In this document: in pieces, positions 17,605-53,737 of the stretch
Layout of the letters: every line of letters starts with the position of its first letter
Position numbering within the stretch: position 1 is the stretch's first letter
Virus record (IMG/VR): IMGVR_UViG_3300028027_000001
DNA from: a virus
Strand: one strand, 5' to 3'
Length of the DNA stretch: 64,000 nucleotides
Program-made: the position numbers and the translations under genes
Notes under the pieces: model-generated
What the model saw: only the letters and a program-made list of their open reading frames with translations
What the model was told of the DNA's origin: nothing
Databases searched by the model: none

Positions 17605-18240
17605 TTAAAATATAGGGCATGTGCCTTTAGCACATAGTATTTCGGTAACTAGTGAATTAACTTTATTGTATGGGTTTAATTGTGTAGTTCTAGATTCGTT
17701 AAGTTGACCAGGTTGGGTAAACCATGAATTTGGATTTGATGGGTTGCTTACAAAATCGAAACAAAGCAATTCGAAATCATCTTGTACCTCCATGACTTCA
17801 CCTACTTGTTTGAGTGAACCCATACCACGAGATGACATACCAACGTTCAAGCCATTCTTAATCAATGCCCCAACAATACGTCCAGAAGATGTTCCCTTTT
17901 CACCCATGTCCGAGAATATTTCTATTAACCCCATAATTTTATCCCCATCCCACCATATCTTTCGAATAGCATGAGATACGTTTTTAAGGTTGATAATTTG
18001 TGAATCTGGATGGTCTAACTCACCACATACTTCTGTAGTTTTTTTCTGGATATGTTGTTGGAATTTATCTATTTCACGTTCCCATAGTTCACGTGGGTAG
18101 TAGCGGCCATTTCCATTTTTTACTTCAACGGTTGCTAAGATACCTTCTACAAATACATTACCACCATTTCCCTGTCCTTCTACTAGAAGGACAGGTGATG
18201 GGTTAAAGTATCGTGTTTCAATTAATAATTGTTTGTTCAT
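17605..18240 (-). CDS. gp21: Prohead maturation protease, T4 gp21 family
   Basis: NGNGRYYP, GELDHP, GMSSRGMGSL and DFVSNPS catalytic motifs. Confidence 0.95.
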   Translation of the reverse strand: MNKQLLIETRYFNPSPVLLVEGQGNGGNVFVEGILATVEVKNGNGRYYPRELWEREIDKFQQHIQKKTTEVCGELDHPDSQIINLKNVSHAIRKIWWDGDKIMGLIEIFSDMGEKGTSSGRIVGALIKNGLNVGMSSRGMGSLKQVGEVMEVQDDFELLCFDFVSNPSNPNSWFTQPGQLNESRTTQLNPYNKVNSLVTEILCAKGTCPIF

Positions 18241-18258
18241 GGGGGGTAAATATATTTT

Positions 18259-22910: not shown

Positions 22911-24491
22911 TCAAAGCAACCATGATATATCTTCGGTGCCATTTCCGTATGGGTTAGGTATGTTGAATTGGTTTTGGTTTGAACCATTCATATAACCACC
23001 AGCATATGGGTTTGATGTTGTATTAATACTATTTAATATACTTCGAGACATATCCATACCTTGTTGTCTCATTTTAAATGTTGTGTCTCTTAAATAACAC
23101 CCAATAGAAAAGGCCATTACTAGGTCATCATTATATCCTGTCTGTGCTTCAGCACGGCCATTTTTCCAAACAAACACTTTCATTTCCTCAAATAACCTAG
23201 ATGAATATATGATTCCACTTTTGTCTCTCACAGCTTCTTGGAACTTTCCTATAGCTACTGGTCGATTTTGTTGGTTAAGGTTAAATCCCGCTACCATTTT
23301 ACTACTATCCATTACTGGATCAAAATATGAATTAACGCTAGATCCTTTTGGTGTATAGTATAAGTTAGGATACCCACGATCAATTATAGTCTGGATGGTT
23401 GACCAGCCAATAGATGCGTTTTCTACGGCTAATAAAGCATTATTATATTCGGTTGCTATACCAACAAGTAAATGTCCAAATTCAGTGGTGGTTAATTGCC
23501 CCCTATATTCACCCACTTGTTTAAATGATTCAACATCAAATATATGGAATGTTGAAAAATCCTTTCCATCACCTCTAGCAACGTCTGCCGCTACCATGTA
23601 ATTGCGAGAATAATCAGCAGGTTCCCATATCCATAAATTTTGGTCAACACCTCGTTTTTCCAATGGTTCTCGAATATATGTTTGAGATATAAAATCCATA
23701 TCTTCTGGGGTGAATACAGTATCACCGGATGTTGAGAAATCACAATCACACTCTTGTGCCGCCATACGAATACCTAAATCCGCGTCCTGTTTATCTCTCC
23801 AATTTTGGTCTCGTTCAGGGTGGACACTCCAAGGTAATTTGATTGGCAAGAATGAATTATCACCCATTTCAGCACCTAACCATGTTTTATGGAACCAGTT
23901 ACCTGTACCATATGGTGTGGATAATGCGATGCAGCCCCCACCAGTTGCTAGGGTTTGTTGAGCAGATGCCCATATCTCACCAATGTTGTTGATGAATGCA
24001 GCCTCATCAATTAGTAGCAAAGATACTGCTTCTGATCGACCTGCATCAGATGATGCTGATGTTGCTTTAATTTGGGAACCGTTGTTGAGACGTAGGGTTA
24101 ATTTGTTATCTTCAACTGGTTTGTCTTTTTCACGTAACCATGTAGGTAAATTGTCGTACATGAATTTTACCTTGGTTACAATATTTTTTGCAGTATCCTG
24201 TTTAGTGGCAATACAAAGTATGTTTTTATCTTGATGGAATAACATTAACCATACCGCATAACCTGATGCTAATGTAGATATACCTAACTGCCTGGATTTA
24301 AGTACGATTGAATACGGGTTTTCTTGGAATAATTGAAGTACCTTTTCCTGGAATGGGTATAATTGGAATTGGATGCGTCCGCGTTTAGGGTGTTGGATAT
24401 AACAATATTTCTTCATGAAATATGCTGGAGATTGGGAGCATTTAATGTATTCTTCCCTGATTACTTGGCGTAGGCTTTTATTTGATTCCAT
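22911..24491 (-). CDS. gp17: Terminase large subunit
   Basis: KSRQLGIS Walker A, LLIDEAAF Walker B, STPYG coupling motif; DVARG.G.D and DDLVMA nuclease motifs. Confidence 0.97.
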   Translation of the reverse strand: MESNKSLRQVIREEYIKCSQSPAYFMKKYCYIQHPKRGRIQFQLYPFQEKVLQLFQENPYSIVLKSRQLGISTLASGYAVWLMLFHQDKNILCIATKQDTAKNIVTKVKFMYDNLPTWLREKDKPVEDNKLTLRLNNGSQIKATSASSDAGRSEAVSLLLIDEAAFINNIGEIWASAQQTLATGGGCIALSTPYGTGNWFHKTWLGAEMGDNSFLPIKLPWSVHPERDQNWRDKQDADLGIRMAAQECDCDFSTSGDTVFTPEDMDFISQTYIREPLEKRGVDQNLWIWEPADYSRNYMVAADVARGDGKDFSTFHIFDVESFKQVGEYRGQLTTTEFGHLLVGIATEYNNALLAVENASIGWSTIQTIIDRGYPNLYYTPKGSSVNSYFDPVMDSSKMVAGFNLNQQNRPVAIGKFQEAVRDKSGIIYSSRLFEEMKVFVWKNGRAEAQTGYNDDLVMAFSIGCYLRDTTFKMRQQGMDMSRSILNSINTTSNPYAGGYMNGSNQNQFNIPNPYGNGTEDISWLL

Positions 24492-24492
24492 A

Positions 24493-24921
24493 TTATTTAA
24501 TGTAAAGGAAAATTGATATAATAGCTACAGTACCTATTAAACCCGCAGATAAATATTTTGTTGTTGCCCTATAAATATCTAGTTGGTTTTGTTTATTTTC
24601 ATTATCTGATTTGAGTTCAGCTACCATATATTTTTGAAGGGATATAGTAGTATCACGTAAAGATAATTCTTGAACATATGTTGATGTTTTATCGCGATAT
24701 ATTTTAATTACGCTATCACGTTCAACTAATGATTTTCTATACTGCTCCATAAGAACATGGGTATATTTCAATTCAGCAATTGCTGAGTCTCCTTTAACTA
24801 GATCAATGACTATGTGTTTTGCTGTTGGGTATGGGAAACAAATTTTATTTGTATCGATTTGTGAAAAAACTATAGAGTTGAGTAGAAGTATAACGGTTAA
24901 TATCCTTAATTTTAGTATCAT
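24493..24921 (-). CDS. Spanin-like protein (signal peptide, coiled coil, C-terminal hydrophobic segment)
   Basis: Overlaps the 3' end of 24845-25198 in another frame, as in overlapping Rz/Rz1 pairs. Confidence 0.45.
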   Translation of the reverse strand: MILKLRILTVILLLNSIVFSQIDTNKICFPYPTAKHIVIDLVKGDSAIAELKYTHVLMEQYRKSLVERDSVIKIYRDKTSTYVQELSLRDTTISLQKYMVAELKSDNENKQNQLDIYRATTKYLSAGLIGTVAIISIFLYIK

Positions 24922-25198
24922 AATATGAACGTGTGTCGATTATTTGTTGTTGGGTGTTTTGAATGGCATTATTTAGTGAGTCTATATTTCGAGTATGGTA
25001 GATTAAAGTGCCATCTAATTTATGTTGTTTTAACTGTAGTTGTTTGATAACCCCAGATATACTGTCTATTTGTGTTTGTTGTTTGGTTAAATCTATTGGT
25101 TTTGAACCGCATGATTTAGTTGATATAAATAAAACAACAAGGGCAATACATAATAGTATTACCGTTGATAAATTAATATGAATTACCCTGTCGTTCAT
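24845..25198 (-). CDS. Spanin-like membrane-anchored coiled-coil protein
   Basis: N-terminal hydrophobic helix followed by a coiled coil. Confidence 0.5.
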   Translation of the reverse strand: MNDRVIHINLSTVILLCIALVVLFISTKSCGSKPIDLTKQQTQIDSISGVIKQLQLKQHKLDGTLIYHTRNIDSLNNAIQNTQQQIIDTRSYYDTKIKDINRYTSTQLYSFFTNRYK

Positions 25199-25204: not shown

Positions 25205-26401
25205 TTACATTTTTACTTGTTTCAATTTTTCAATTGCTGCTTCAATACGCATTTTTTCAGCAGTTAATGCTTTACGTTTTTCCATATCAGGTGAACCAAC
25301 CATTGCTTTAAGTTCAGCTGTCTTAGCGTCCAACGCTTTTTTTAATTTACCATATTTGTCACCAGCGTTTATTGCACCACCTTTAACACTAGCTGCCATT
25401 TTCATTGCTGCTGCGTCTTCTTTGTCTACTGGTTCAGTTTTAGCTGTTGTAGGTTTTTCTGCTTTAGGTTTTTCTGTTTTGGAAGAGGGGGTTGATTTTG
25501 GTTTTGTTGATTTAGGTTCAACTGCAGGTTTTTCAGTTGATTTACGTCCACGTTGTCCTGGTTCATATTCACCTAGTGCTTTTGCTACTGCTTTTTCTGT
25601 TTGAGGACCACCTAAATTAGATGTGTATTTTGGGTCGTCACCATATTTTTCTTCTTGTGCCATTAACGCATCCTCTACTTCTGGGGCAAATTCAGGGCGT
25701 TTCTTTTTACTTAATATGATTTTTGAGATATCTTTTGCTGTTGCATCTGGGAATTTATCTTTTAATTTTTCAGATGCAGACTTAATTGCATTGAATAGTT
25801 CTGTGCCTTTCTCACCACCGATGAAGGGCATTTCATTTAATGTTTCTTCGTCAAGTTGATTACTTTCATCTAATCCTTGCTTTTCTGCATTAACTTTTCG
25901 TAAAAAGTCAATGTAAATATTTTCATCTTTACCATTCAGTCCATAAACGCGTGCGTGGTAAAGGTTCGGGTCATCTTCATTCCATGAAATTTTAACTCCA
26001 TCATTAAACTTAGTAATTACTCTACCTAAACCCATATCCTCCCAATCAGATCCAGAAATAGAAATCTCATTATCTTCATTCAATGACGTGCCTGGTTTAG
26101 ATAATTCTTGTTTAGTTTTATTTAACGCGGTAATTTTTTTATCAATAGCCATGCGTTGAGCATCTGCTGCTGCCTTATTTGCGGCTGCGTCTTCGTTTAC
26201 ATTGAAAGTATTAGCAGTTGCTTCTAATTGTGCTATTTGAGCATCTAGATTATCACGCAATTGTTTCAATTGTTCTACTTGATCTAATAATTTATTCATT
26301 TCACGTTGTTGTGTTTGTGGTGAATCATACATTTGTTCATTCTCACCTAAATAATTAGATATTTCTTCGCGGATAATGCCCATTAAGTAATTTTGTTTCA
26401 T
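25205..26401 (-). CDS. Putative internal head protein
   Basis: LMGIIREEI leader, multiple LxE sites, Lys/Pro-rich C-terminal region. Confidence 0.55.
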   Translation of the reverse strand: MKQNYLMGIIREEISNYLGENEQMYDSPQTQQREMNKLLDQVEQLKQLRDNLDAQIAQLEATANTFNVNEDAAANKAAADAQRMAIDKKITALNKTKQELSKPGTSLNEDNEISISGSDWEDMGLGRVITKFNDGVKISWNEDDPNLYHARVYGLNGKDENIYIDFLRKVNAEKQGLDESNQLDEETLNEMPFIGGEKGTELFNAIKSASEKLKDKFPDATAKDISKIILSKKKRPEFAPEVEDALMAQEEKYGDDPKYTSNLGGPQTEKAVAKALGEYEPGQRGRKSTEKPAVEPKSTKPKSTPSSKTEKPKAEKPTTAKTEPVDKEDAAAMKMAASVKGGAINAGDKYGKLKKALDAKTAELKAMVGSPDMEKRKALTAEKMRIEAAIEKLKQVKM

Positions 26402-26417
26402 TTGAATATATTTTTAA

Positions 26418-26960
26418 TTATAAATATGCGGGGAATATTGTCTGTTTAACTTTGAGTACCCTTTCCTCAACGGAACCCGTTAATTCTGCGTAATTTTTCA
26501 TTTGATATGAATGTTTACGACATATACTTCTGATTTCATCATCCACAGACATTCTATATTCTGGGTCTATGGTTCGCACTCCATTATCTTCGATTGCTAC
26601 CCCATCAGGTGATATGTAGAATATATAGTCGTATTCGGATATTAAACCATATGCTAAATTGCGGAAATCTGATTTTAGATAGAATGGGATAGATTTGGAT
26701 AGTTCAGTAAATGCAATTACATCAATTATTGTACGGTCAGTGATAATATTAGTACACATTAATTCACTAGCACGTTCAGCAGCAAATATAATTTGCCCCT
26801 TAATAGTTGAATCAGTATTGAGTGGTACTCCCAAATCACGCAAGTATTTTGAACGTTCTGTGGTGAATGTATATCCTTCAAATTCAGGTAATTGTTTGAG
26901 TGCATTTACGAGTGTAGTTTTGCCTACCGAAACACTGCCTGTGAAACCTATTTTAGCCAT
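26418..26960 (-). CDS. NadR/AAA_28-like P-loop kinase
   Basis: GSVSVGKTT, IITDRTIID, YDYIFYI and EDNGVR motifs. Confidence 0.75.
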   Translation of the reverse strand: MAKIGFTGSVSVGKTTLVNALKQLPEFEGYTFTTERSKYLRDLGVPLNTDSTIKGQIIFAAERASELMCTNIITDRTIIDVIAFTELSKSIPFYLKSDFRNLAYGLISEYDYIFYISPDGVAIEDNGVRTIDPEYRMSVDDEIRSICRKHSYQMKNYAELTGSVEERVLKVKQTIFPAYL

Positions 26961-26978
26961 ATAATTTATTATTTAATG

Positions 26979-27010
26979 TGAATATATGAAGCCCCGATTG
27001 GGGCTCCAAA
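26979..27010 (-). promoter_or_regulatory. SigmaA-type promoter with a hairpin in its spacer
   Basis: TTTG-N20-TATATTCA; the spacer contains GAGCCCC-AATC-GGGGCTT. Confidence 0.65.
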
Positions 27011-27096
27011 TATTGTTTAACTAGAACTCGATAGTATCGCCTTGTTCCCATTCATTTTCCATAACACAATTATTTGAGGGGTTATGGAGATAAATA

Positions 27097-28404
27097 TTAT
27101 TTAATTAATGAATCTGCGATATAGATACCATGTAATGCTGAAATGTATATTCCTCTAGCCCCAGCAGCATCTCCTTGTAAGTGGATATTTGGATATTTTG
27201 GTAGAGATAAATTGTGTTTGTTTAGTACTATTTCATTGGTTAAGAATTTTACTTCAGGACAATAGAATATATAATTGTCGTCAATACCAAATGTTGAATT
27301 TAAATCAGATATAAACTCCATAATATAGTCGGCATATTTACCGAATCCTTCTTTGAATTTGTCCAAAGTGATTTTATATCCAGGTACGGATCCACCTTGA
27401 TCAGTTTGGGATGGTTCTCTATCTGTTGGTGAGTAGTATGCTGCTTTACCTTCGGATTGGAAGAATTCCACTAATTGTTTACTGAATGTAAATGGATCTT
27501 CAATACCACGCGCCTCAAGTAATATACCGAAATTGGTTAAATCATTGAATTTGTCTGGGTCTTTATGAGCATGACCATTAAATGATTTCATCCCGTATGT
27601 TTCTTCTTCTGCTACGAATGCAGCGAAATTGTTTGTGCAAAATGAACGGGCGCTATCGTCGCCAAATTTCTTGTACAATTTAAAATCGTATGCTATTTTG
27701 TTTAGTTCGGTGAAATATTTTCCGTCTGTTTCGTAACGCACACCAATTTGTGCTGGTTTAGGTGTAGTGTCTAGTTGGTATTCTTCGATTAAATCCGACA
27801 AGAAGTCCATTCCCGATTTACCTGTACCAACAATTAACACATCATAGTCAGTATAATTATGTACGGTTTCCCCAGCGTATTGAGTATCAAATATAACGCG
27901 ATTATGTTGTGCATCTATACTAGTAACATTGGCATTGTATACCTGGTATACACCACATTGCTCAAAGTACTCGAATATAGCTTTAACTTGTTGCTGACCA
28001 AAATCAGTACCCAAGTGATAACATGGTGATTGGCGCAACTCAAATGGTGAATCCTTGATGTATTGTGGTTTATCCGTTGGTTCAGTATACATTATTTTAG
28101 ATGCATCTGGGTGGTATTCTACAATATAGTCATACAATTGTTTGGATAATTGTTCAGCATATTCTTGGTTAGTACAATAGTGTGGGTAAAATATACCGCC
28201 TTGGTTGAATGATGGGATTACTTTAAAGTCACTCCATGTACCACAACCACCGGCCCCGGTCATAACATCCTCTGGTAATCTGTTGTGGATGTCTTTTCCC
28301 TTATCTATGATGGTGATTTTAGTAGCATCATAACCATTTTTAAGTAAGTGTAGTACAGCATATTGGGTAGATACCCCTGCACCAATGTATACTATTCTTT
28401 TCAT
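27097..28404 (-). CDS. FAD-dependent oxidoreductase, COG2509-like
   Basis: Rossmann IGAG..; GAGGCGTWSD, RSFCTN, NGHA, TNFGIL, PEVKF and GDAAG motifs. Confidence 0.8.
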   Translation of the reverse strand: MKRIVYIGAGVSTQYAVLHLLKNGYDATKITIIDKGKDIHNRLPEDVMTGAGGCGTWSDFKVIPSFNQGGIFYPHYCTNQEYAEQLSKQLYDYIVEYHPDASKIMYTEPTDKPQYIKDSPFELRQSPCYHLGTDFGQQQVKAIFEYFEQCGVYQVYNANVTSIDAQHNRVIFDTQYAGETVHNYTDYDVLIVGTGKSGMDFLSDLIEEYQLDTTPKPAQIGVRYETDGKYFTELNKIAYDFKLYKKFGDDSARSFCTNNFAAFVAEEETYGMKSFNGHAHKDPDKFNDLTNFGILLEARGIEDPFTFSKQLVEFFQSEGKAAYYSPTDREPSQTDQGGSVPGYKITLDKFKEGFGKYADYIMEFISDLNSTFGIDDNYIFYCPEVKFLTNEIVLNKHNLSLPKYPNIHLQGDAAGARGIYISALHGIYIADSLIK

Positions 28405-28423
28405 ATATAAATTTTAATTTAGT

Positions 28424-28455
28424 TGAATATACGTAAAATAAAAAGTGGCTCCAAA
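28424..28455 (-). promoter_or_regulatory. SigmaA-type promoter of the oxidoreductase gene
   Basis: TTTG-N20-TATATTCA. Confidence 0.7.
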
Positions 28456-28476
28456 TACTTTCGTATAAGGAGCCAC
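28435..28476 (-). terminator. Intrinsic terminator with a GAAA tetraloop
   Basis: GTGGCTCC-TT-ATAC-GAAA-GTAT-TT-GGAGCCAC then TTTTTATTTT. Confidence 0.8.
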
Positions 28477-28480
28477 AGCT

Positions 28481-28518
28481 TCCATAATTTTATTGAATCG
28501 ACAGGCTATGAATCTATC
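28481..28518 (-). other. Predicted H-type RNA pseudoknot in the 3' UTR
   Basis: S1 GAUAG/CUGUC, S2 UUCAUAG/UUAUGGA, A-rich loop 3. Confidence 0.4.
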
Positions 28519-28533
28519 TACATGTTTGGCTAA

Positions 28534-28842
28534 TTAATCACCGGTGTATGCTGAACCCATATGTCCTTTTCCTTTTCCTAAATCAACATATTTGGTGGAT
28601 TTAGGAGATGTTGGTTTTGGGTTAATTTTAATGCTTAAATCGTAAAGTTGTTCAAGTGATAGATCGGATAATGATTCTACATTATTTTTGTCTAAAAACA
28701 CATTGATTATAGATTCACGGTTTGTTTTAGCAGCAACATTTTTAATCCCACGAATCATCATTGATTTATCACGAGATTCATTTTCATTAATTACACGGGA
28801 TATTTCTTCCTTAATGATGCGACGGATGTCTGTTTTATTCAT
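28534..28842 (-). CDS. Small protein with IIKEEI leader (putative internal head protein)
   Basis: MNKTDIRRIIKEEISRVINE. Confidence 0.6.
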   Translation of the reverse strand: MNKTDIRRIIKEEISRVINENESRDKSMMIRGIKNVAAKTNRESIINVFLDKNNVESLSDLSLEQLYDLSIKINPKPTSPKSTKYVDLGKGKGHMGSAYTGD

Positions 28843-28857
28843 GTTTATATGTTTTTG

Positions 28858-29133
28858 TTACCCTACCCAAGACCTTTTTGTCCTCCTATTAAAATATATA
28901 GGACGGCCATTTTTCCTTCCCATTATAGTTATTTCGTCATTATCATCACTTTTACCTAATATTTCATTATATTCACTATCGTCTAATTCACGACCTAAAT
29001 ATTTTTCAACTTCAGATTTGTTATTTGGATTAACACCAGCTGCTTTTAAGTCCCTTAAAGTATCATACGATTCTTCGTTTAGTACTTTTTTAATTTCTTC
29101 TTTGATAATGTTACGTAAATCAGATTTTTTCAT
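28858..29133 (-). CDS. Small protein with IIKEEI leader (putative internal head protein)
   Basis: MKKSDLRNIIKEEIKKVLNE. Confidence 0.6.
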   Translation of the reverse strand: MKKSDLRNIIKEEIKKVLNEESYDTLRDLKAAGVNPNNKSEVEKYLGRELDDSEYNEILGKSDDNDEITIMGRKNGRPIYFNRRTKRSWVG

Positions 29134-29389
29134 GTTTATGTATTTTTATTTTTAATGTACCATCACCTTTAATTAATCGGTGATATATATGTTTCGGTAT
29201 AAATATATGTTCTTTTAGTGAGGTAGGCAAATTATTGTCTAACTGGATTTGCCAGTTTGTGTCTTCTAGGATTTCTATAGTGCGATCTTCAGCATCCCTG
29301 TGCCAAAGCATTTCGATTGGATCTACATTTTCGTTGAAGTTACGGATGATATAGGTATCGGTTATCTCTATGTCGGTGTATGGGGTCAT
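29120..29389 (-). CDS. Small cupin-like protein
   Basis: WHRD.EDR and IPK..YHRLIKG His motifs; ATG 29389 overlaps the upstream stop (TAATG). Confidence 0.6.
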   Translation of the reverse strand: MTPYTDIEITDTYIIRNFNENVDPIEMLWHRDAEDRTIEILEDTNWQIQLDNNLPTSLKEHIFIPKHIYHRLIKGDGTLKIKIHKHEKI

Positions 29390-30066
29390 TACCAAAATCC
29401 TGTAAACGTTGTGTTGATACCAAGTGCTTTGGCAAATTTTGGAAGGCGACATGACCAATAACGCGCACTAGTTTTTGGTTCGCCAGTACCACATTTATGT
29501 CGTTTAGCGAATGCTCGGCGTGCCTCTGGGTTGTTTATTTTTGCTTTAAGTCCACCAGCATCACCAAATGACACTTTTTTGATATTTTTGGTTTTTGGAT
29601 TGCGAACATAAACATAGTATTTTTTACCACCAGCACCACCACGTTTTGGTTTTCCAATTGGTGGGTCTTTTTTGTCTGCTTCGTTAATATCTTCATCAAC
29701 CATAGGCATATCTAATGGTACTTTTTTACCTTCAAACATACCATACTCACCTAAATTGGTTTCGGTAAGTATTTCTTTGTCCAAATCGTTTACATGGATA
29801 GCTTCACGAACATATAAATAACGAGCTTCTGCCCATAAATCGAGGAATGATTTTGAACCATAGCGGAATGTGTTTTCGGTTAGTGGTAATTTATTTTCCA
29901 CATGATATCGCAGATTTTCCGTCATTAACACTGGTGTATTAAGTGACTCATTTATTACCACGCCAGGGTTTCCAACATTGTCACAATCGTGACACCCACA
30001 ATTACATTTGTCTTGTTTTGGTGGTGTGGATAGTGCTTCGCGAATAAGTTTTTCTAGTCTGTTCAT
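29389..30066 (-). CDS. Leader-bearing protein with a basic C-terminal domain (DUF6321-like)
   Basis: KKVSFG...ARRAFAKRHKC...SARYWSC; N-terminal LEKLIREAL leader. Confidence 0.6.
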   Translation of the reverse strand: MNRLEKLIREALSTPPKQDKCNCGCHDCDNVGNPGVVINESLNTPVLMTENLRYHVENKLPLTENTFRYGSKSFLDLWAEARYLYVREAIHVNDLDKEILTETNLGEYGMFEGKKVPLDMPMVDEDINEADKKDPPIGKPKRGGAGGKKYYVYVRNPKTKNIKKVSFGDAGGLKAKINNPEARRAFAKRHKCGTGEPKTSARYWSCRLPKFAKALGINTTFTGFW

Positions 30067-30077
30067 GTAGATAAATA

Positions 30078-31539
30078 TTACGATATTTTAGCGAATACTG
30101 AACTTGATTTGGTTGAAGATGAAGCATATCTAATTATATCTGAAATGATTTCATTTTTAATATCATCAGATTGAGATTCAATGATACTTGCTAAGCTGGT
30201 AGATAAATATTTGGATACTAGCCAGTTTAAGTCTTTTTCATCTACTATTTGGTTAAATTCTTCTCGGGATATTTTTCCAACTATTTTAATATAATTAGCA
30301 TAAAAATCATCCAATAAATTGGAATCATTTGATTTGAATTTTGTTTGTAATTCTGAGGTTGATGGTAAGGTTTTAAGGTTAAGGGAATTCAATACATCAT
30401 TGATGGCACCATGTCCTATTTTACCATGAGCGGCAGTTTTACCTTTTATTTCACCTGCAAAATTCCCAGCAAAATTAAATGTTCTAAATGTAATAGAACC
30501 ATCATTATATAATATTACCGTATTATTGTTGGTAGGTCTTGAATCTGCTCCTTCATATGTGTATCCGGCTTTATCTTCTTTACTTAAGTTATAAGTACCT
30601 AGCTTGGCTTCAGCACCTGTTTTTTTCAGGGATACTCCTATCAATTTATTACTAGAATATAAATCGGCAAGGGTTGCGTTTAATTCATTTAGTTCTGTTG
30701 GAAATTCCATTCCCAAAATGGATATATCTACCATCCAAATATCAGATGGATTCCATTTATCAGATTGCATAGATACACCTGATTTTTTCTTAGCTATGGC
30801 AAACGCTCCGTATATTTTATTAACAAATTCGGAACCTCGGTGTTGTTGGAAATTAGGATTGGGGTAATTGGATAATAATATATTAGCGGATAAAATAAAG
30901 GTATTTGTCCAACTATTTTGGTTTTTAATGAAATCTTTAACTTCATCCAAAGTACTAGAAACATCACTCAACCCATATGCCTTATCAATATTACCATCAG
31001 TTAAATCTTCTGGGGATATATTTCCTTTTTTTTATTTTGTATGCTATAGAGTTAACAACACTTTGAGATGATTCTTGGATTGCCGTACTAGCGGCCCCAC
31101 CACCTTGTCCGGCCCCACTACCAAATTCTTCTGTTTTTTTAAACGAAGTGATCCCATATGCTTTACCATTAGTGTCAATTAATACTTTAGCACCCTTATT
31201 TAAAATACTGTATTGTTTTTTCTTCAGGGCATCTATTAAGTCAGATGATGATTTGGGATCAATTACAATAGTAGAACCATCATTTAATTCAAATTCACCA
31301 CCTTGTAGTATTTTTTCTAAAAATCTTTCACCACGGTCAGAATATTTACTTGAAAATTCATTTCGGGGTGGGTATGGTTTTTCTAATTCTTTAGGGGACA
31401 ATGAACTTTCTGTTATATTAATACCTAATTTGCTTAACTCGTTTTCCAATAACGTAACGTCTTGTGGATTATTTACGTCTGGGTATCCCTTATGGAATTT
31501 GTATGATATTCTACGTAAAAATTGTTCAATGATATCCAT
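30078..31539 (-). pseudogene. Restriction-endonuclease-like (PD-(D/E)XK variant) gene split by one extra A in an A8 tract
   Basis: ORFs 30997-31539 and 30078-30971 fuse into ~486 aa if the T8 run at 31026-31033 is T7; DKWNPSDIW...GVSLKK motif. Confidence 0.65.
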
Positions 31540-32003
31540 TACGCTTCAGGTGTTTCTGGTTCAGTTGGTGTTTCTTCTTTTGATGGTTTTTCATCGGGGA
31601 AATTCTCAAAACCATCGTTGTCTTCGCTTGCCACTTCTTTAGTACCATATCTTAATATACGGGCAATAGATTCGGCCGCGCGTTCTTCTTCGGGGAGGTT
31701 AGCTAAGTAGTAGCGTTTACCTTCAATTTGAGCCATCCAACTACGTGTACCGTAGATGAGGTAAAATTCTTGGTTGTTCTTTAAATTAATACGAAATGTA
31801 GTTGGGCGTGGTGCTACCCAATCAATTGATGAGAGGAAATTATCGTATTCGTTAGTCAATAAATCAACCAAAACCGATTTAAGTTCAGGGAATTTGGTTA
31901 GTTCATCGTATTCGACAACATCAGGCAGTACATCTTGTTGTTTTGATTTATATACCTGTTTTGCTAGTTCACGAATGCGGGATTTGAAATCGTCTATTGT
32001 CAT
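31539..32003 (-). CDS. Hypothetical protein
   Basis: 154 aa; WVAPRPTTFRINL motif; acidic tail. Confidence 0.7.
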   Translation of the reverse strand: MTIDDFKSRIRELAKQVYKSKQQDVLPDVVEYDELTKFPELKSVLVDLLTNEYDNFLSSIDWVAPRPTTFRINLKNNQEFYLIYGTRSWMAQIEGKRYYLANLPEEERAAESIARILRYGTKEVASEDNDGFENFPDEKPSKEETPTEPETPEA

Positions 32004-32434
32004 TTCGTTTTGTTTTTGATACGATTAAATATGGTTTCAGTTAAATCAGGTACTATATTTGAATCATTTTTTGGTGGAGTAGATAACGCAGTGCGGATTA
32101 TTTCACGAAGTTTTTCTTCGTTTGTAGCCGTTTTACGTTCATCTAGTTGTTTTGCTTTGGATATGGCATGACCATATGCTACTTTTTCTGCATCAGCACC
32201 ATATTTTTTAAATAACATGTCTCGCTTGTCGGCGATCATTGATTTAAATATAGCTACTGCTTTTTTGGATACTTCGGGAGATAGACCTTCGGTTAATGAT
32301 TCGTTTTTTTCAGCAGCATATAGTGCACGTAAATGTGCTTTAGCTAATTCTACAGAATCAGAAACCCCAACGGATTTTAATTTTCCGTTGGGTAATTCTT
32401 TGTATACAGTTTTTCCGATTCTTTTGTAAGGCAT
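32000..32434 (-). CDS. Basic hypothetical protein with an internal KLREIIR motif
   Basis: MPYKRIG...AKAHLRALYA; LTE/LDE sites. Confidence 0.65.
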   Translation of the reverse strand: MPYKRIGKTVYKELPNGKLKSVGVSDSVELAKAHLRALYAAEKNESLTEGLSPEVSKKAVAIFKSMIADKRDMLFKKYGADAEKVAYGHAISKAKQLDERKTATNEEKLREIIRTALSTPPKNDSNIVPDLTETIFNRIKNKTK

Positions 32435-32435
32435 A

Positions 32436-32609
32436 TTAGTTTGCTTTGTCTTCTGCAGTAGATGTACGTTTGAAGTCAGCTGCTAATTTTTTAATTACGT
32501 TTGCTACACTACGAGCTCTACTACGAGATACTTTTGTTGTTTTTGTGTGTTCTGCTTTCAAAACTTCTACAGCCGCAACTAATGCGTCTAGGATTTCTGT
32601 TGTGTTCAT
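32436..32609 (-). CDS. Histone H1-like (Hc1-type) nucleoid protein, 57 aa
   Basis: Not in the ORF track. MNTTEILDALVAAVEVLKAEHTKTTKVSRSRARSVANVIKKLAADFKRTSTAEDKAN matches the K...RAR....IKK...FRK.S pattern. Confidence 0.7.
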   Translation of the reverse strand: MNTTEILDALVAAVEVLKAEHTKTTKVSRSRARSVANVIKKLAADFKRTSTAEDKAN

Positions 32610-32632
32610 AGATTTTATTATTTATTTGTTTA

Positions 32633-33430
32633 TTATTGTGCCATTGATTGATCAATAGCGAATTTAAGTGTGTTTAAGATTTGAGTAGTTAATTTCTCAT
32701 TACCCATTGCTTTAGCAGCATCCAATGACGTCATTAAATGGTTAATTAATTCTTTAGCGTCACCGGTTGCACCAGCAGCAGCAGCGCTTAATTCGTCTTC
32801 AGGAGCATCTATTTCTGTATCCATTTCCATATCTGGGTCTAGGTCAGCGTCGTCAACTGGGAGGTCTTCTTCTTTGTCTTTTTTAGCTTCGTATAGCTCA
32901 TCTTCGTCTTCAGCATCAATGTCGAAAAAATATTCGTCAGCATCGCTACCGTCCCATTCTTCATCTTCGAATTCATCTTCGATTTTATTATTTCCACCCA
33001 ATTCAGCTAATACCATTTCGCGAATTTTAGAACGTAATATGTTTTCATTTAACCCATTACTGTGTTCAATATCTGACATATTCATTAATGTCTTGAGAAA
33101 AGTAATATCACCTCTATTATAATCGGGGTTGTTGGAAATTTGTTCCATTTCCTCTGGGCCAAATCCATATCTATATGATTCGTTGAACCCAATTGTATTG
33201 ATTAATCTTGTATATTTTTCAGCTGCTTCTCTGCCTAAAATACTGCCTATGGTTCTTGCTGCATTTTTAATATTTTTTTGTTCATCAGCATCATGGGAAT
33301 CTAATCCATATTCATTAATTCTTCCAGGGTTTTTTTCCGTGTTTTCGTTTAATTTACGGAAAATAGGGTTCATATTTTCAATAGATTTGCTCTCTACTAA
33401 AAATTTACGTAAGTCAAAGTTATCGCTCAT
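32633..33430 (-). CDS. Acidic putative internal head protein
   Basis: FDLRKFLVE leader, several LNE/INE sites, LRSKIREMV motif. Confidence 0.6.
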   Translation of the reverse strand: MSDNFDLRKFLVESKSIENMNPIFRKLNENTEKNPGRINEYGLDSHDADEQKNIKNAARTIGSILGREAAEKYTRLINTIGFNESYRYGFGPEEMEQISNNPDYNRGDITFLKTLMNMSDIEHSNGLNENILRSKIREMVLAELGGNNKIEDEFEDEEWDGSDADEYFFDIDAEDEDELYEAKKDKEEDLPVDDADLDPDMEMDTEIDAPEDELSAAAAGATGDAKELINHLMTSLDAAKAMGNEKLTTQILNTLKFAIDQSMAQ

Positions 33431-33467
33431 TGTTTATGTTTTCGGTATAAATATATGTGAGTATGTG

Positions 33468-33680
33468 TTATTTGTGGTTTTGTTTAAGTATCGCTAATGT
33501 TTGTGTAACTTGTTCACGTAACGCTTGAGCATCAAATGGTACTTCGTTTTCGTTTACATTTTCTAAATCCATCAAAATCGAATCTAATCTGCCATATATT
33601 TTTTCAGGTAAGGTTAATTCAAGTGGGGATTCGTTTAAGTATTGGTTTTTGAACCATTTATGTGCGTCAAATTCACTCAT
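33468..33680 (-). CDS. Small hypothetical protein
   Basis: FDAHKWFKNQYLNE leader similar to that of 33430. Confidence 0.6.
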   Translation of the reverse strand: MSEFDAHKWFKNQYLNESPLELTLPEKIYGRLDSILMDLENVNENEVPFDAQALREQVTQTLAILKQNHK

Positions 33681-34254
33681 TAGTATTTGGTTTACGTTTT
33701 AAACTATTTAAATATTCGATTGATTCTTGCATAGATTGAGCAACACGGTCCTTGTCTATACCACCAACCCATTTCTGGATGTCACCAGCTTCGGTAATAT
33801 ATCCTTCATTACTTTCGGATAGGGCATCTTGCATATATGCTTTGTAGTCTTCGATGTATCCGTCTATTTCTTGATTATATGCTTCGGTTACATAGTCGTC
33901 CCACTTGCCTTCTAATTTGAGTTTGGTTTCAAATTCAGTACGACAGTCTAAACATGAACCGTATGACTTGTAGTAATGTGGGTCCAACTGTTTATCCATT
34001 ACTTGCTTACATGATGGACAAAATAATGGGACTGCTACTTTTTTGAATTTGTCTAGTTTGGTGATATTTTCACGGATGCCATCTCTAATAGTCCATTTTT
34101 TCCCATCTTCTACCCACACATCACCTTCAACATGGTCTTCTTGTGTTTTTGTGTAACCTACACCGTGAGTGATGCGATCACCACTTTTACCTTTTACTAA
34201 ATTACGAATACGTTGTACGTCTCGTTCATTGAATTGTTTCTTTAGTACTGACAT
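33673..34254 (-). CDS. Hypothetical zinc-ribbon protein
   Basis: CPSC...CLDC; EGDVW.E.GKKWTI motif. Confidence 0.7.
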   Translation of the reverse strand: MSVLKKQFNERDVQRIRNLVKGKSGDRITHGVGYTKTQEDHVEGDVWVEDGKKWTIRDGIRENITKLDKFKKVAVPLFCPSCKQVMDKQLDPHYYKSYGSCLDCRTEFETKLKLEGKWDDYVTEAYNQEIDGYIEDYKAYMQDALSESNEGYITEAGDIQKWVGGIDKDRVAQSMQESIEYLNSLKRKPNTNE

Positions 34255-34793
34255 TATAACCCGAGTTGTTTAAGTTGTTGTATTGTGTCTGCGGCGCTAA
34301 TGTGGTGGATACCTACTCCACCTTTTGCTCTCCAGTCGTCGATAGTTGCTTTTCTATCATCGATAAGTATACGGTTTTTACGTGAATATTCTGCTTTAGT
34401 AGCAGCTGACTTGAAGTATAGTTTTTTAACGTTGTCCAAATTAGTAGTAACCCACAACATTTTTCCTTCTTTTGATTCTGGGTTAAATGTAGGTGCTGTT
34501 AAAATGTATGGGGTGTACTTTTTAATATAATCCCATAGTTGTTTTCCGTCAGACATCCATTCAAGTTCCGACCAGTATTTGAATTCGGATGTGTCTTTAT
34601 TCTTGATTGAATCGTTGAATGTTTTCCAAAAATCTTTCTTAACTTGTACGTCTGCGTGGTGAGTATGCTTACCTGTTAATTGGTAATAACCTTTGTCGAA
34701 GTCGACCAAAACGCCATCCAAATCTGCAAATATCACATATTTAGGGTGTTCATCCTCTTTAATTAGTTTATACAGGTCTAGTAATGTCTTCAT
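34254..34793 (-). CDS. HAD-family 5'(3')-nucleotidase-like phosphatase
   Basis: DLDGVLVDF, ILTAP, GK..W, ILIDD and W...GGVGI.H motifs. Confidence 0.9.
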   Translation of the reverse strand: MKTLLDLYKLIKEDEHPKYVIFADLDGVLVDFDKGYYQLTGKHTHHADVQVKKDFWKTFNDSIKNKDTSEFKYWSELEWMSDGKQLWDYIKKYTPYILTAPTFNPESKEGKMLWVTTNLDNVKKLYFKSAATKAEYSRKNRILIDDRKATIDDWRAKGGVGIHHISAADTIQQLKQLGL

Positions 34794-34797
34794 TTTA

Positions 34798-35472
34798 TTA
34801 AATTATGTTGTTTTTTTTAGATCTATTATCCGATTTATATAATGGTTGGGTATTGATATAATTGAATGCGGTGAATATATTTTTTTCTAAAGTCAAATCA
34901 AATTTAGATAGAGGAATTATATGATCTATTTCCCAAACATCTCCGTGATTTTCCCAAGTCATACCATCTAAAAATTGTTGTTCTATATATGATCTATAAT
35001 ATTCTATAGAACACCCCAAATATTGGAGGGATGAGTTGTCTCTATGTATATTTTTTTTAGTTAACATACTATTCATCCTACATCTTAAATTACTTTTTAA
35101 TTTATGATTTATATCAGTACTATATTTGATATTCTCCCAGTTTATTTTATAATCTTTGTTTCGAGAATATTGTTGTTTATACCAATCTTTAGTTTTATTA
35201 TTATTGGATATACATTCTTTGCAATAGTAATATATGCCGTTAATTGTATTTTTATTTTTTACAAAACATTCATTTGGTTTTTCAATATCACACATCAGAC
35301 ATATTCGACTGTTTTCGAATATAGTTTGTTTTTTTTCTTTAAGTGGTGAATATCTTCTTGACTTTTCAACCACACATGGTTTACAATATATATCTAAACC
35401 ATCTGATTTTGATTTATTTTTATTAAAATGGGTTAAATCTTTTTTTAGATTACATTTATAACATGTTTTCAT
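34798..35472 (-). mobile_element. HNH homing endonuclease with N-terminal zinc fingers
   Basis: Two CxxC...CKxC units; MTWENHG.VWEIDHIIP...N.QPL...N..K. Confidence 0.85.
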
Positions 35473-35513
35473 AACGGTGAATATACGTACCTAAGTTTAA
35501 TTAGGCACGTTTT

Positions 35514-36491
35514 TTATGAATTAGGTAATATGTGGTTTTTGAACTTTCTTAATAATAATCCACCTTGTTCATATGCTTCACGCTCAATTTCAAGTAACTT
35601 TTCATCTTCATGTATATTAGTTGTATTGATGGTTGGTAGGCGATCCTCTAAATTTTGCATATGATGAATATATTCATGACATATTGTAGCTAATACATCA
35701 CGGGGGGAACGGTTAAGAGAATATACGGTTATAGTCAATGTTGAAGGATTATAGTAACCAGTTTTACCAAAGAAATCACTAGCATTTTTAGTGTCGTTAT
35801 CTATTAACTCAACGCGTGGTAATGGTTGCACGTTCATCCCTTCACTAATCATATATTCGTTTAATGATTGAATATAACCTAACAATAATTGACGTGAATC
35901 AGTAGGTTGTTCTATTTCGGTTACTGTGGTTTGTGGGTTAAGTATATTTACTACTTGTTGTTTTTCTTCATCACTCAATATATCTGGGAGGTAGTGTTTA
36001 AATGCTTCATAGTTACCTGATAGTAATGCTTGGCGTGCTTTTGTTCCACTAACATCTGGGTCTCCAGAAAGGACAATGGTTTTAAAATTAGTGTATTTTT
36101 TACCTAGTGAATCAAATCGTTTAATATCGTTTTGGTCTGCTTCTGATCGCATCCCAACTACAGGGAAATAGAAATTTTGTGGATTTTCACCAATTATTTT
36201 ATGTATGTCTATAATAGGTGAATTAGCTTCTGCTATACGAATAGAAACATTTGAAGATAAATGATTTTTATATATTTCCCATATCTCCAAACTTTGATCA
36301 GCAGTTATACCGTCACGTACTTTATGTCCTATTAATACAATTACTTCGTCTATTTCTCCACGTTTTGCTACCTCATTAACTAAATAAAAATGTCCGGATG
36401 TGGGTGGTTTATATCCGCCAGGAATTAATGCTATGGATTTTCCTGGGGTTTCAAGGAATGGTTGGATTAGAGATTCAACTAATTGATTCAT
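35514..36491 (-). CDS. Cytidylyltransferase-like (HIGH-type) nucleotidyltransferase fused to a C-terminal HEXXH zincin-like domain
   Basis: PGGYKPPTSGH and VSGTKAR; C-terminal GYYNP...CHEYIHHMQ...EREA. Confidence 0.8.
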   Translation of the reverse strand: MNQLVESLIQPFLETPGKSIALIPGGYKPPTSGHFYLVNEVAKRGEIDEVIVLIGHKVRDGITADQSLEIWEIYKNHLSSNVSIRIAEANSPIIDIHKIIGENPQNFYFPVVGMRSEADQNDIKRFDSLGKKYTNFKTIVLSGDPDVSGTKARQALLSGNYEAFKHYLPDILSDEEKQQVVNILNPQTTVTEIEQPTDSRQLLLGYIQSLNEYMISEGMNVQPLPRVELIDNDTKNASDFFGKTGYYNPSTLTITVYSLNRSPRDVLATICHEYIHHMQNLEDRLPTINTTNIHEDEKLLEIEREAYEQGGLLLRKFKNHILPNS

Positions 36492-37243
36492 GCTAAGAAT
36501 GTGTTTATTTTTTGTTTGGCACTGTCTAATATATCGAATTTTGGTAACGTTTTTACCATTTGCTCTATATCACGATTTAACTGTGCTTTGTTTGCGTCTG
36601 ATTTTGCTTGTTCTTCTGGTGTTTTGGGTTTACCTGTTGCTATTTGATCAAGTAAATATGGTTTTAATAATGCGCTAGAAAACGATTTATTTGCGTCTTT
36701 CGGGTCGTTATTTATTAATATAAAGTTATCGCCAAATTCGCGCGCGTATGTGTCTATATTGCGATTTACATCACGCCATGTTCTCAATACAATACCAGGC
36801 ATTAAACTACGTTCACGTTCTGAATTACGTTGGAGTGAAGTTAATGGGGAAACATAAATCATTAACATTAATGTTGTATATCCAAGTGCCTCGAGTTCCT
36901 GTTTTTTCTTCAGTACTGGGTTGGTTGAGGCTCCTGTCCCATCAATTACTAAGTCTTGCATGTTTTGAATGGTTTGGGATAGTTTATCTTGGGTAACTTT
37001 GCGGGCCTGTGATTGCATTTTGGCTGCTTGTGATAGTTGATCAGGTGTGAAGTTTTTTTGTTTCAGACCTATACCACTAGCTTTCAACATTTCCTCATAT
37101 GTGTCATCTGAATTGATCACAGTTAATGATGGTGGGATAAGTTGCTTAGATATGTATGATTTACCACTGCCTGCAGGGCCAGCTAGGAATATAGCGTGTG
37201 GTTTATTTTGTATTTCTTTAAGTAATTGTATGAGACTAATCAT
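36488..37243 (-). CDS. P-loop kinase, zeta-toxin/AAA_33-like
   Basis: AGPAGSGKS, VINSDD, LVIDGTG and RNSERER motifs. Confidence 0.85.
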   Translation of the reverse strand: MISLIQLLKEIQNKPHAIFLAGPAGSGKSYISKQLIPPSLTVINSDDTYEEMLKASGIGLKQKNFTPDQLSQAAKMQSQARKVTQDKLSQTIQNMQDLVIDGTGASTNPVLKKKQELEALGYTTLMLMIYVSPLTSLQRNSERERSLMPGIVLRTWRDVNRNIDTYAREFGDNFILINNDPKDANKSFSSALLKPYLLDQIATGKPKTPEEQAKSDANKAQLNRDIEQMVKTLPKFDILDSAKQKINTFLA

Positions 37244-37254: not shown

Positions 37255-38022
37255 TTACAATTTACGTTTAACTGTGGTTTTAAATTCGGTGAATGCTGGT
37301 TTATGTGTTGGGTTTTCGATGTCAAATATGCGTTTCACGTTTTTGAATATGTCGATATTTTCCTCAAATGTGCGAGTCGATTCAACTATTTCCCAACCTT
37401 TACCCTGCAATTTGTCCGCGTTTGGTTTACGTTTGCTGGATTTTAGCCATAATATACCACATCTATCGATTGGTTTATGGAAACATTCAGTGTAACATTG
37501 AGCATATACCGCTGTTTGTAAATCATAGGTTGTGTGTAAATGGTTGGATGTTTTTAAATCAAGTACCCAACGTTCACCATTCAATTCAATAATCAAATCG
37601 CACGTGCCTGCTACTTTCAATTCGTCTGAAAATAGGTGCACTTCGGCTTCAATTAATGTTGGATGGTGAGTTTCCCAAAAATCAACAAATCTTAATAACA
37701 TTTCCCAAACATCGGGACTACATAGTGGTTGCCCGGATGGGGAAAGAAAATGTAGCTCTTCACCATTTAAATACGCCTCAGCCATTTCGTGTACTTGCGT
37801 ACCTTCTTCTGCTGCTTTTTTAACTATATATTCCGAAGCAAACCCAACTTGTTTCAACCATTTTTCGAAATGTGGTCCTTTTGGATATGAATTTAATACA
37901 TAAGTAATACTTGGGTAATAATGTCCGTTACGGCGGTAATAACGTGAATCGGGAAGGGTGATTTGTTGAGCATCATCAGATATCTCTAAAATGCGATTAT
38001 ACGATCTTTTAATTTTACTCAT
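37255..38022 (-). CDS. PD-(D/E)XK exonuclease (lambda-exonuclease/Cas4-like fold)
   Basis: YPSIT.VL, GTQVH, AGTCDL, LDLKTS and LQTAVY motifs. Confidence 0.88.
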   Translation of the reverse strand: MSKIKRSYNRILEISDDAQQITLPDSRYYRRNGHYYPSITYVLNSYPKGPHFEKWLKQVGFASEYIVKKAAEEGTQVHEMAEAYLNGEELHFLSPSGQPLCSPDVWEMLLRFVDFWETHHPTLIEAEVHLFSDELKVAGTCDLIIELNGERWVLDLKTSNHLHTTYDLQTAVYAQCYTECFHKPIDRCGILWLKSSKRKPNADKLQGKGWEIVESTRTFEENIDIFKNVKRIFDIENPTHKPAFTEFKTTVKRKL

Positions 38023-38945
38023 ATGAGTTGTAGTTTATGTTCCATTAATCTATATTGAGTTAATGGTTGGGTTGTTTGTATTAATTTAGTGAATGTTTCA
38101 AAACCCAGCTCTGAAGGGTCTTTACCACTTAATTCAACTAAATATACTTCTTTGCCTATATTGAGTAGTTCTTCACAGAACTCAATTGCCTTTTTAATTG
38201 CATCTTTGTCTAATGCAATATACACTTTTTGTACACGGGATTCAACCAATTTTTTCATTAGTTGTGGTTGAATATTTTTTCCCAATAATGGAATCACGTT
38301 ACGTTTAATAGCGATAGCATCAAATGGTCCCTCACATAAAATGATAGGTAAATCCCAGTTGATAAACATTTCAAATGCTATTATATCACGCGATACCATT
38401 GGATTACGGTATTTAACATAAGGTTCATGTTCAAACGATCGTGCAGTAAAATAGTTGAGTTTACCATTACCATCATATGAAGGTATAACTACCATATTAT
38501 TATATAAACCACCTTCACAATATCCAATACCATATTTAAGTATATCTTGTGGAGTTAAACCACGTGATTTTAAATAACGATATGCATGTCTTGCTACACG
38601 TGAGTTATTGTCTATGAATGACTTATATTCTTTTGGTAATTCGAGAAATATTGTTTGAGTTTGATTAGATTCGAAATACGTTGATTTAACGTGTTTACTT
38701 AATTCACTCATATGTTCCGGTGAAACATTAATTCGCTTAAATAAACTACGCACTGTTTGACCCTTAACACCACACGCCCAACATGCCCACCTGTGTTTTC
38801 CTTCGGAGTTTTCTAGTAATTGTATTTCTAATTTAGGTTTTGGGTGATGACATAACGGGCAGTGATAGGCAATATTACCACGTGATGTACGTTTACCTTG
38901 CCCTAGTACCGAATTTACCAAATTAACTAATAACTCATTTACCAT
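38019..38945 (-). CDS. DNA primase (zinc finger + Toprim)
   Basis: CPLC...CWAC; CEGPFDA; ALDKDA; KDPSE. Confidence 0.92.
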   Translation of the reverse strand: MVNELLVNLVNSVLGQGKRTSRGNIAYHCPLCHHPKPKLEIQLLENSEGKHRWACWACGVKGQTVRSLFKRINVSPEHMSELSKHVKSTYFESNQTQTIFLELPKEYKSFIDNNSRVARHAYRYLKSRGLTPQDILKYGIGYCEGGLYNNMVVIPSYDGNGKLNYFTARSFEHEPYVKYRNPMVSRDIIAFEMFINWDLPIILCEGPFDAIAIKRNVIPLLGKNIQPQLMKKLVESRVQKVYIALDKDAIKKAIEFCEELLNIGKEVYLVELSGKDPSELGFETFTKLIQTTQPLTQYRLMEHKLQLI

Positions 38946-38950: not shown

Positions 38951-38981
38951 TGAATATACTAATTATGGGTGGTTAAGCAAA
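38951..38981 (-). promoter_or_regulatory. SigmaA-type promoter of the primase/exonuclease genes
   Basis: TTTG-N19-TATATTCA. Confidence 0.7.
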
Positions 38982-53402: not shown

Positions 53403-53737
53403 TATTTACCGCTTAATAAATTCATAATTTGATCCATCCCTAATTCTCCATTACCTAAATTCCCATTTACAGGATCACCAACCGCTGATGGGTTGAATTG
53501 GTTAATATCTCTGCTAGTAAAACTCATAGCGGTTTCACCTAAAATATTAGCATATTTTTCTCTAGCATCAAATGTTGGTTGTGTAAATGTTGGTTTATAA
53601 TCAGGTTGTGGTGTATGTGTTTCTTGAATAGATGTTTTAGGAGTTTTGAGTGCTTCTAAAAGGATATCTTTCATTTCGTCACGAATAGCATCACGTACTG
53701 CTTCTTTAATTAATTGTTTAAGTTCTGATGTTTTCAT
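53402..53737 (-). CDS. Hypothetical protein with an LKQLIKEAV N-terminus
   Basis: 111 aa; late motif 6 nt upstream of the ATG. Confidence 0.65.
   Translation of the reverse strand: MKTSELKQLIKEAVRDAIRDEMKDILLEALKTPKTSIQETHTPQPDYKPTFTQPTFDAREKYANILGETAMSFTSRDINQFNPSAVGDPVNGNLGNGELGMDQIMNLLSGK

Follow-up and report, generated by a model that had tools for sequence, protein, structure and literature searches.

Exchangeable N-terminal leader helices on late-type proteins of a T4-like phage of Flavobacterium-type bacteria and their probable role as prohead-targeting tags

The stretch of viral DNA held as IMG/VR record IMGVR_UViG_3300028027_000001 (64,000 nt, all of it analysed here and called the window) comes from a distant relative of phage T4 whose host is a Flavobacterium-type bacterium, and every gene in it lies on the minus strand. 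The cassette under study comprises the genes between the large terminase and the primase (38019-38945), among which otherwise unrelated proteins begin with a short helical leader that in the best-defined family closes with the motif [LI]-x-E. At least four or five leader families coexist in this phage and its relatives. With moderate confidence, the leaders are read as a multi-family system of tags on late proteins, probably removed by a protease and most likely serving to target these proteins to the prohead. Among cultured phages the nearest relative is Flavobacterium phage vB_FspM_immuto (capsid identity 60%, hereafter immuto), Rhodothermus phage RM378 is a remoter one, and a megablast search of the cassette against cultured phages gave no match. 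Genes and their proteins are named below by the higher coordinate of the gene where no other name is given; all coordinates are collected in Table 1.

RESULTS

Leader A in the window

An initial annotation of this DNA had proposed that unrelated proteins of the cassette share one amphipathic helix followed by an L/I-x-E site, and all of the peptides that it quoted are present at the positions given for them. All 79 predicted proteins were compared in pairs over their first 22 residues, and against shuffles. Six pairs scored 35 or more whereas none did so in the shuffles. Four of these pairs connect genes 26401, 28842, 29133 and 53737; the remaining two join paralogous fibre genes and the HAD nucleotidase with the head-core protein. 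The element common to the four proteins, leader A, is a 20-residue N-terminal helix of the pattern M-K-K-S-x-L-[KR]-x-I-I-[KR]-E-E-I-x-x-x-L-x-E, with [LI]-x-E at residues 18-20.

A hidden Markov model (HMM) of leader A, refined on 55 members from the window and its relatives, matched only these four window proteins (E 2e-13 to 5e-8). The next-best window protein gave E 0.8, the nucleotidyltransferase E 3.6, 30066 E 15 and 32434 E 18, and the HAD, kinase and HNH proteins were absent from the matches listed to about E 50. Such a search across the genome and its relatives was a check that the initial annotation itself had suggested, and it bore out 26401, 28842 and 29133 but none of the other reading frames named there. 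The shared helix is thus real on these three proteins but it is not one motif, since 30066 bears leader D and 33430 leader C, as described below. Leader-A coding sequences diverge at synonymous sites and the DNA upstream of them is not conserved, so the peptide, and not a DNA cassette, is under selection.

AlphaFold2 predicts for the 29133 protein a helix at residues 3-19, a predicted local distance difference test (pLDDT) score below 50 at residues 20-22 and then a small separate fold, for which no PDB match was found. Only 13 database matches to this protein were obtained and in two of them the likeness is confined to the leader. The payload of the neighbouring 28842 is a singleton unrelated to that of 29133. 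The gene of 26401 is conserved and stands upstream of the genes for the spanin-like proteins and the large terminase, and its product matches no Pfam or PHROG family. Its identification as a small terminase was considered and is unlikely given the absence of a family match, the length of 115-480 aa among its orthologues and the presence of different, leader-C proteins at this position in immuto. The two small overlapping genes between 26401 and the terminase (24493-24921 and 24845-25198) look like a spanin pair, one having an N-terminal membrane anchor and a coiled coil and the other a signal-like N-terminus and a C-terminal anchor.

Leader A in relatives

Relatives were sampled as 80 loci around terminase homologues; of the records named below, G001 is a near-complete relative of 156 kb, L002 the closest relative and L111 the immuto record. 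In the terminase loci a further 51 proteins start with leader A. As 47 of the 55 leader-A proteins form one orthologous family, encoded by the gene upstream of the terminase, counts of these proteins are not independent and the independent payloads number about ten. Members of this family keep the leader and, at the C-terminus, a basic coiled coil, but vary in between. The other leader-A proteins carry about nine unrelated small payloads. In L002 the orthologue of 29133 is followed by a leader-A gene with a payload differing from that of 28842, a pattern of payload replacement behind a retained leader.

A tightly packed array of 12 genes behind a single copy of the promoter motif ATATTTATA, described below, was found in G001, five of the genes bearing leader A and six leader C. 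Payload lengths vary within the array, and none of the payloads could be assigned to a Pfam or PHROG family. The G001 arrays sit among replication genes and adjoin a clamp loader and a chaperonin-like gene. For the tagged payloads of relatives in general, Pfam and PHROG gave no function apart from one sub-threshold hint of an ADP-ribosyltransferase. This came from a 210-aa leader-A protein (L070 1478-2110) with a match to Tox-ART-HYD1 at E 6e-4 and 20.8 bits, the cut-off being 25; it recalls Alt of T4, and PDB sequences and PHROGs give it no support.

The cut motif and the head machinery

In 50 of the 55 leader-A proteins [LI]-x-E stands exactly at residues 18-20, compared with 1.9% of other proteins, and among independent payloads about 70% have it at the tag end. 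The proposed sequence of helix and L/I-x-E therefore holds for leader A in its fixed spacing, but the motif by itself is weak evidence since 33% of proteins have it somewhere in residues 10-25.

The frequency of the motif would suit the view that the leaders have no common function and arise from the abundance of K, E, I and L in an AT-rich genome, from amphipathic helices of a generic kind and from local duplication of genes. The adjacency of 28842 and 29133 would suit it also, as would the comparable profile matches given by the terminase and by an internal segment of the AAA_28 protein (below). This view is nevertheless very unlikely, and for leaders A, C and D it is already disfavoured: the observed pair scores are never reached by shuffles, the leader stands at residue 1 in 55 proteins with unrelated payloads, different tags are exchanged on one payload, and the synonymous divergence points to constraint on the peptide.

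The protease gp21 of T4 cuts after L/I-x-E, and a 10-residue N-terminal tag suffices there to package foreign proteins (PMC9026906, PMC3012670). The head module of the window is T4-like. Its prohead protease, presumably the enzyme that removes the tags, matches Peptidase_S77 (E 4.9e-27, 95 bits, cut-off 27) and phrog_207 (E 3e-50), and its N-terminal LLIET is the same in T4 gp21. The scaffold matches no Pfam family and was called from its position and a gp22-like N-terminus. It contains 18 [LI]-x-E sites where 4.5 are expected, and two further head-module genes are enriched (13 against 3.9 expected, and for the core protein 12 against 5.1), scaffold and core proteins thus being enriched 2-4 fold. 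The capsid protein has four sites against 7.5 expected, three of them within the first 52 residues, and its N-terminal region aligns with the propeptide region of T4, which is cut at residue 65 in T4. The module also holds three genes without known function between portal and protease.

Promoter motifs

All 16 matches of ATATTTATA in the window are on the coding strand, with 5.9 expected over both strands, and they lie mostly 6-25 nt before structural operons. The motif precedes 26401, 33430 (24 nt upstream) and 53737, and a one-base variant precedes 30066. In relatives its core occurs within 60 nt upstream of 31 of 52 leader-A genes compared with 15% of other genes. Another motif, (G)TATATTCA, precedes the primase operon (primase, exonuclease, kinase and nucleotidyltransferase) and the HNH operon (HNH, HAD and two genes of unknown function), as well as the FAD (flavin adenine dinucleotide) enzyme and the AAA_28 kinase. 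A shorter form, GTATATTCA, distinct from ATATTTATA, was noted upstream of 38945, 35472, 28404 and 26960, hence of replication and metabolism operons, and a longer form, (TTC)GTATATTC(A/C)AGTATAA, before many small reading frames at 61-64 kb (61300-63960). The cassette appears to alternate between late-type and early/middle-type units with the leader genes in the late-type ones. It is best read as a mosaic, the late-transcribed parts of which (25205-26401 and about 28534-33430) encode small, fast-changing proteins.

Leaders C, D and E

The leader C of 33430 had not been noticed in the initial annotation. The match is poor for the window protein and much better for its orthologue (Table 1). The protein also has an internal, leader-A-like helix followed by L-x-E, which in the orthologue matches leader A at E 2e-4. 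Leader C has no significant likeness to the scaffold (P 0.1) or the core protein (P 0.14). An HMM of leader D, seeded solely from an unrelated family and not from 30066, found 30066 at E 4e-3 and its orthologues at 2e-4, though part of these orthologues lack the leader. Leader E occurs on about eight small proteins. It was also found inside core-protein orthologues of a divergent subgroup (E 4e-4), at the position of the core-protein helix of the window that the initial annotation had quoted.

A scaffold peptide and the exchange of tags

The last nine residues of the scaffold (16409-16435) are conserved in 23 of 23 orthologues as R-M-[QR]-K-L-A-G plus two residues. Small unrelated proteins of the relatives and of immuto carry this C-terminal peptide close to their N-terminus, always with [LIV]-x-E after it; within the window it is carried by the scaffold only. 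The tag on one payload family of about 170 aa changes from phage to phage: the immuto member has leader A, the members of three metagenomic relatives have leader C (E 7e-37 to 4e-18), and that of another has the scaffold-peptide tag (E 3e-7). As the same payload is found with different tags, the tags act as exchangeable modules, one of which is a piece of the scaffold, and these two points together are the strongest argument for addressing to the prohead. The payload, which has two hydrophobic helices, could be a membrane-active ejection protein.

Portable N-terminal helices ending in a T4-type motif, as the initial annotation had supposed, therefore do exist, with selection at the peptide level, late-type units and exchange between unrelated payloads in relatives, but they belong to several families. 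A tag that mimics the scaffold is likewise found, in relatives, as the scaffold's own C-terminal peptide; for leader A the idea failed, as follows.

Comparison of leader A with scaffold and core helices

The leader-A profile was calibrated with hhalign against 12 family alignments. It matched the N-terminus of the 32003 family at P 3e-5, the terminase N-terminus at P 0.003 and the 30066 family at P 0.006. For the core helix (residues 218-234) P was 0.026 (0.02-0.03 across runs) and for the scaffold helix (residues 138-155) 0.13 (0.05-0.13 across runs), compared with 0.024 for an internal segment of the AAA_28 protein that served as control. Leader A had been described as the same helix as that of scaffold and core. 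Both indeed gave their top profile matches at the predicted register, yet no better than the control, so mimicry of the scaffold by leader A is unsupported. Complex prediction of the scaffold with leader peptides gave no verdict (score 0.00) and bears on binding in neither direction.

A helix followed by A-L-[ST]-T-P-(P)-K was observed in 29389-30066 (residues 1-17), 32000-32434 (residues 105-122) and 53402-53737 (residues 24-34), and a similar segment occurs in a leader-A protein of immuto. The 32003 module is an internal part of an 841-aa immuto protein, in which modules like 32434 and 32003 are fused. Given this fusion, leader-like helices may mark module boundaries.

The enzymes of the cassette

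The initial annotation went further and had a single scaffold-mimicking tag load a nuclease, a kinase, a nucleotidyltransferase/zincin and a phosphatase, to be ejected before phage transcription. In this full form the model is improbable. The HAD, HNH and nucleotidyltransferase proteins match no leader (leader-A HMM E >3 or unlisted; hhalign P >=0.02, in the range of the control). All four enzymes lie in early/middle-motif operons with primase and exonuclease, and immuto has retained the gene order primase, exonuclease, nucleotidyltransferase, nucleotidase. It speaks for the model that each of the 120 HAD homologues examined has some [LI]-x-E in its N-terminal helix. That helix is kept in all of them, however, starting at a varying distance from the initiator Met, and appears to be intrinsic to the family and inherited with the enzyme domain. 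A short 'type B' tag common to the HAD protein and the core-protein N-terminus (pair score 41) was also considered and rejected, as the likeness fails at the family level, where an HMM does not connect the two.

The kinase is less clear. Its N-terminus resembles leader E by hhalign (P 4.8e-4 in 28 comparisons). Among the 120 homologues examined its first ten residues, which close with L-x-E, hardly change, whereas the linker behind them varies; the ten residues have a pLDDT of 52 compared with 84-96 in the core. On the other hand the leader-E HMM gives only E 0.5, the operon context is early/middle, and the kinase is a conserved core gene of constant length (the 120 best of about 3000 homologues being at least 73% identical), unlike hypervariable internal proteins. 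It is possible, though doubtful, that the kinase is the exception and leader-tagged. The AAA_28 kinase, the FAD enzyme, HNH, HAD and the nucleotidyltransferase are best read as ordinary genes associated with nucleotide metabolism and replication and not as tagged cargo. A PD-(D/E)xK exonuclease and the primase come after the kinase; the other genes of the cassette are without known function.

Table 1. Positions of leaders, payload families, enzymes, head genes and promoter motifs. Coordinates are those of the window unless a locus of a relative is named
Feature	Coordinates	Strand	Remarks
398-aa hydrophilic protein, leader A	25205-26401; leader 26342-26401 (residues 1-20)	minus	HMM E 3e-10
102-aa protein, leader A	28534-28842; leader 28783-28842	minus	HMM E 3e-9
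91-aa protein, leader A	28858-29133; leader 29074-29133	minus	HMM E 2e-13
111-aa protein, leader-A-like N-terminus	53402-53737	minus	HMM E 5e-8; outside cassette
154-aa protein, N-terminal helix fits leader-A profile	31539-32003	minus	hhalign P 2.8e-5; without conserved cut site
265-aa acidic protein, leader-C-like N-terminus	32633-33430	minus	leader C E 0.27; orthologue 1e-4
225-aa Cys-rich protein, leader D	29389-30066; leader about 30028-30066	minus	leader-D HMM E 4e-3
Scaffold-peptide copies	L022 4726-4803; L041 949-1041; L068 4923-5012; L100 1477-1566; L111 11676-12140
Exchanged payload family	L111 2295-2870; L059 226-807; L068 3195-3773; L041 949-1578		two hydrophobic helices
Major capsid protein, Gp23 type	14713-16374	minus	Pfam Gp23 E 9e-71
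Scaffold, acidic	16406-17401	minus	called from position and gp22-like N-terminus
Prohead protease, T4 gp21 type	17605-18240	minus	Peptidase_S77, phrog_207; presumed tag-removing enzyme
Head-core protein, upstream of protease	18259-19395	minus	conserved internal leader-like helix at 18694-18744
Portal	20990-22888	minus
Large terminase	22911-24491	minus
AAA_28 kinase-like	26418-26960	minus	no leader; own early/middle promoter; conserved neighbour
FAD dehydrogenase-like	27097-28404	minus	no leader; own early/middle promoter; conserved neighbour
HAD 5'-nucleotidase, NT5C-like	34254-34793	minus	not tagged
HNH endonuclease	34798-35472	minus	not tagged
Cytidylyltransferase-like protein, C-terminal HExxH motif	35514-36491	minus	not tagged
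P-loop kinase, Zeta_toxin/AAA_33	36488-37243	minus	status as tagged cargo ambiguous
Late-type promoter motif ATATTTATA	26419-26427; 33446-33454; 29198-29206; 53743-53751; variant 30071-30078	minus
Early/middle-type promoter motif (G)TATATTCA	38951-38958; 35478-35485; 28424-28431; 26979-26986	minus

Other observations

Two reading frames on the minus strand, 30078-30971 (297 aa, TTG start) and 30997-31539 (180 aa), jointly match one 486-aa frame of L002 and L008 (phrog_1462, unknown function); the phrog_1462 gene is split or frameshifted in the window. The tandem paralogues at 9445-10761 and 10765-12063 (about 435 aa), the first 22 residues of which are almost identical (pair score 106), are probably fibre or receptor-binding proteins, with a late-type motif before each region. 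A 567-aa gene that resembles homing endonucleases (12844-14547; GIY-YIG at the N-terminus, HNH family at the C-terminus) and has a late-type motif of its own lies between the capsid gene and PhoH. In the immuto record the scaffold (L111 25627-26868) is annotated as DNA polymerase phi-like and the leader-C protein upstream of the terminase (17632-18633) as cob(I)alamin adenosyltransferase; in both cases low-complexity sequence seems to have led to a wrong annotation.

DISCUSSION

If the leaders target the prohead, the helix would bind the scaffold or core of the assembling prohead and the protein would become enclosed. The gp21-type protease would then cut after the [LI]-x-E that closes the tag, freeing the payload inside the head, and the payload would leave with the DNA at the next infection.

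Several points weigh against this reading. No paper on these tags was found, nor a virion proteome or other experimental evidence of packaging or cleavage for this lineage. Once calibrated, the likeness between leader A and the helices of scaffold and core falls short of significance. Some leader-bearing members lack the cut motif, the counts are dominated by one family as noted above, and the promoter classes and their timing are read from the sequence only. One copy of ATATTTATA, at 29198, falls within a coding region, and relatives do not keep it. Leader-like helices extend beyond plausible capsid cargo: the large terminase, which is not packaged, starts with one (the P 0.003 given above), and another heads 53737, a conserved protein whose gene is the first of a baseplate operon, with gp25-like and gp6-like genes next, and whose orthologue in G001 stands behind the same promoter ATATTTATA.

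The similar helices on the baseplate-operon protein and the terminase would fit an alternative in which the leaders are indeed portable address or docking helices but direct their proteins elsewhere than to the capsid interior, to the baseplate or tail or to a host or phage hub (chaperonin, clamp or membrane), or simply serve for oligomerisation. The position of the G001 arrays beside a clamp loader and a chaperonin-like gene and the hydrophobic helices of the exchanged payload would fit it too. It leaves aside, however, the fixed [LI]-x-E at the tag end, the occurrence of one payload family with either a leader or a copy of the scaffold's C-terminal peptide, and the late-type promoters common to leader genes and head genes, and it is judged rather unlikely. 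Targeting to the prohead is the reading retained here.

A broader picture is offered tentatively and with clearly less confidence than prohead targeting itself. T4-like phages infecting Bacteroidota may run a multi-tag loading system in which swappable helices address a changing arsenal and the head protease clips them, one tag copying the capsid-binding C-terminus of the scaffold and others the core-protein helix, with cargo that includes at least one conserved P-loop kinase. If the targeting reading is true, the tags mark proteins delivered with the DNA by a widespread group of aquatic phages, and the tagged proteins are candidate counter-defence or takeover factors beyond recognition by homology. 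The coexistence of swappable tags, one of them scaffold-derived, would show how capsid-targeting signals arise, and the heads of Flavobacterium phages could be loaded with proteins by means of these ready-made tags. Capsid loading can be tested directly in the cultured relative immuto.

The closest known system is the capsid-targeting sequence of T4, carried by IPI, IPII, IPIII and Alt and removed by gp21. Replacing the closing Glu of the T4 tag by Asp prevents processing but leaves targeting intact. As in T4, a short N-terminal peptide ending in L/I-x-E is found on unrelated, fast-evolving proteins, together with an S77 protease, a gp23-family capsid, a scaffold rich in cut sites and carrier genes of late type, their timing here being judged from sequence. 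The tag here is about 20 residues long whereas that of T4 has 10, at least four or five tag families coexist and are swapped, and the carriers are partly in arrays among replication genes. No resemblance to the T4 tag itself is evident when compared by its published description only, and packaging and cleavage are predicted for the present phages.

Scaffold C-terminal peptides and cargo-loading peptides direct cargo into shells of the HK97 fold, as in the scaffold-fusion tags of P22 and the cargo-loading peptides of encapsulins. The relatives similarly put a copy of the scaffold's terminal peptide on unrelated proteins, but in them the copy occurs naturally, takes an N-terminal position and has a protease site after it, and it would presumably bind the capsid protein. 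In the giant phages phiKZ, 201phi2-1 and SPN3US, where the packaging and processing of ejection proteins depend on propeptides, a protease related to gp21 likewise trims many proteins of the head interior after Glu (PMC9026906). These phages differ from the proposed system in their S/A-x-E sites and in having no defined consensus tag that is short and portable.

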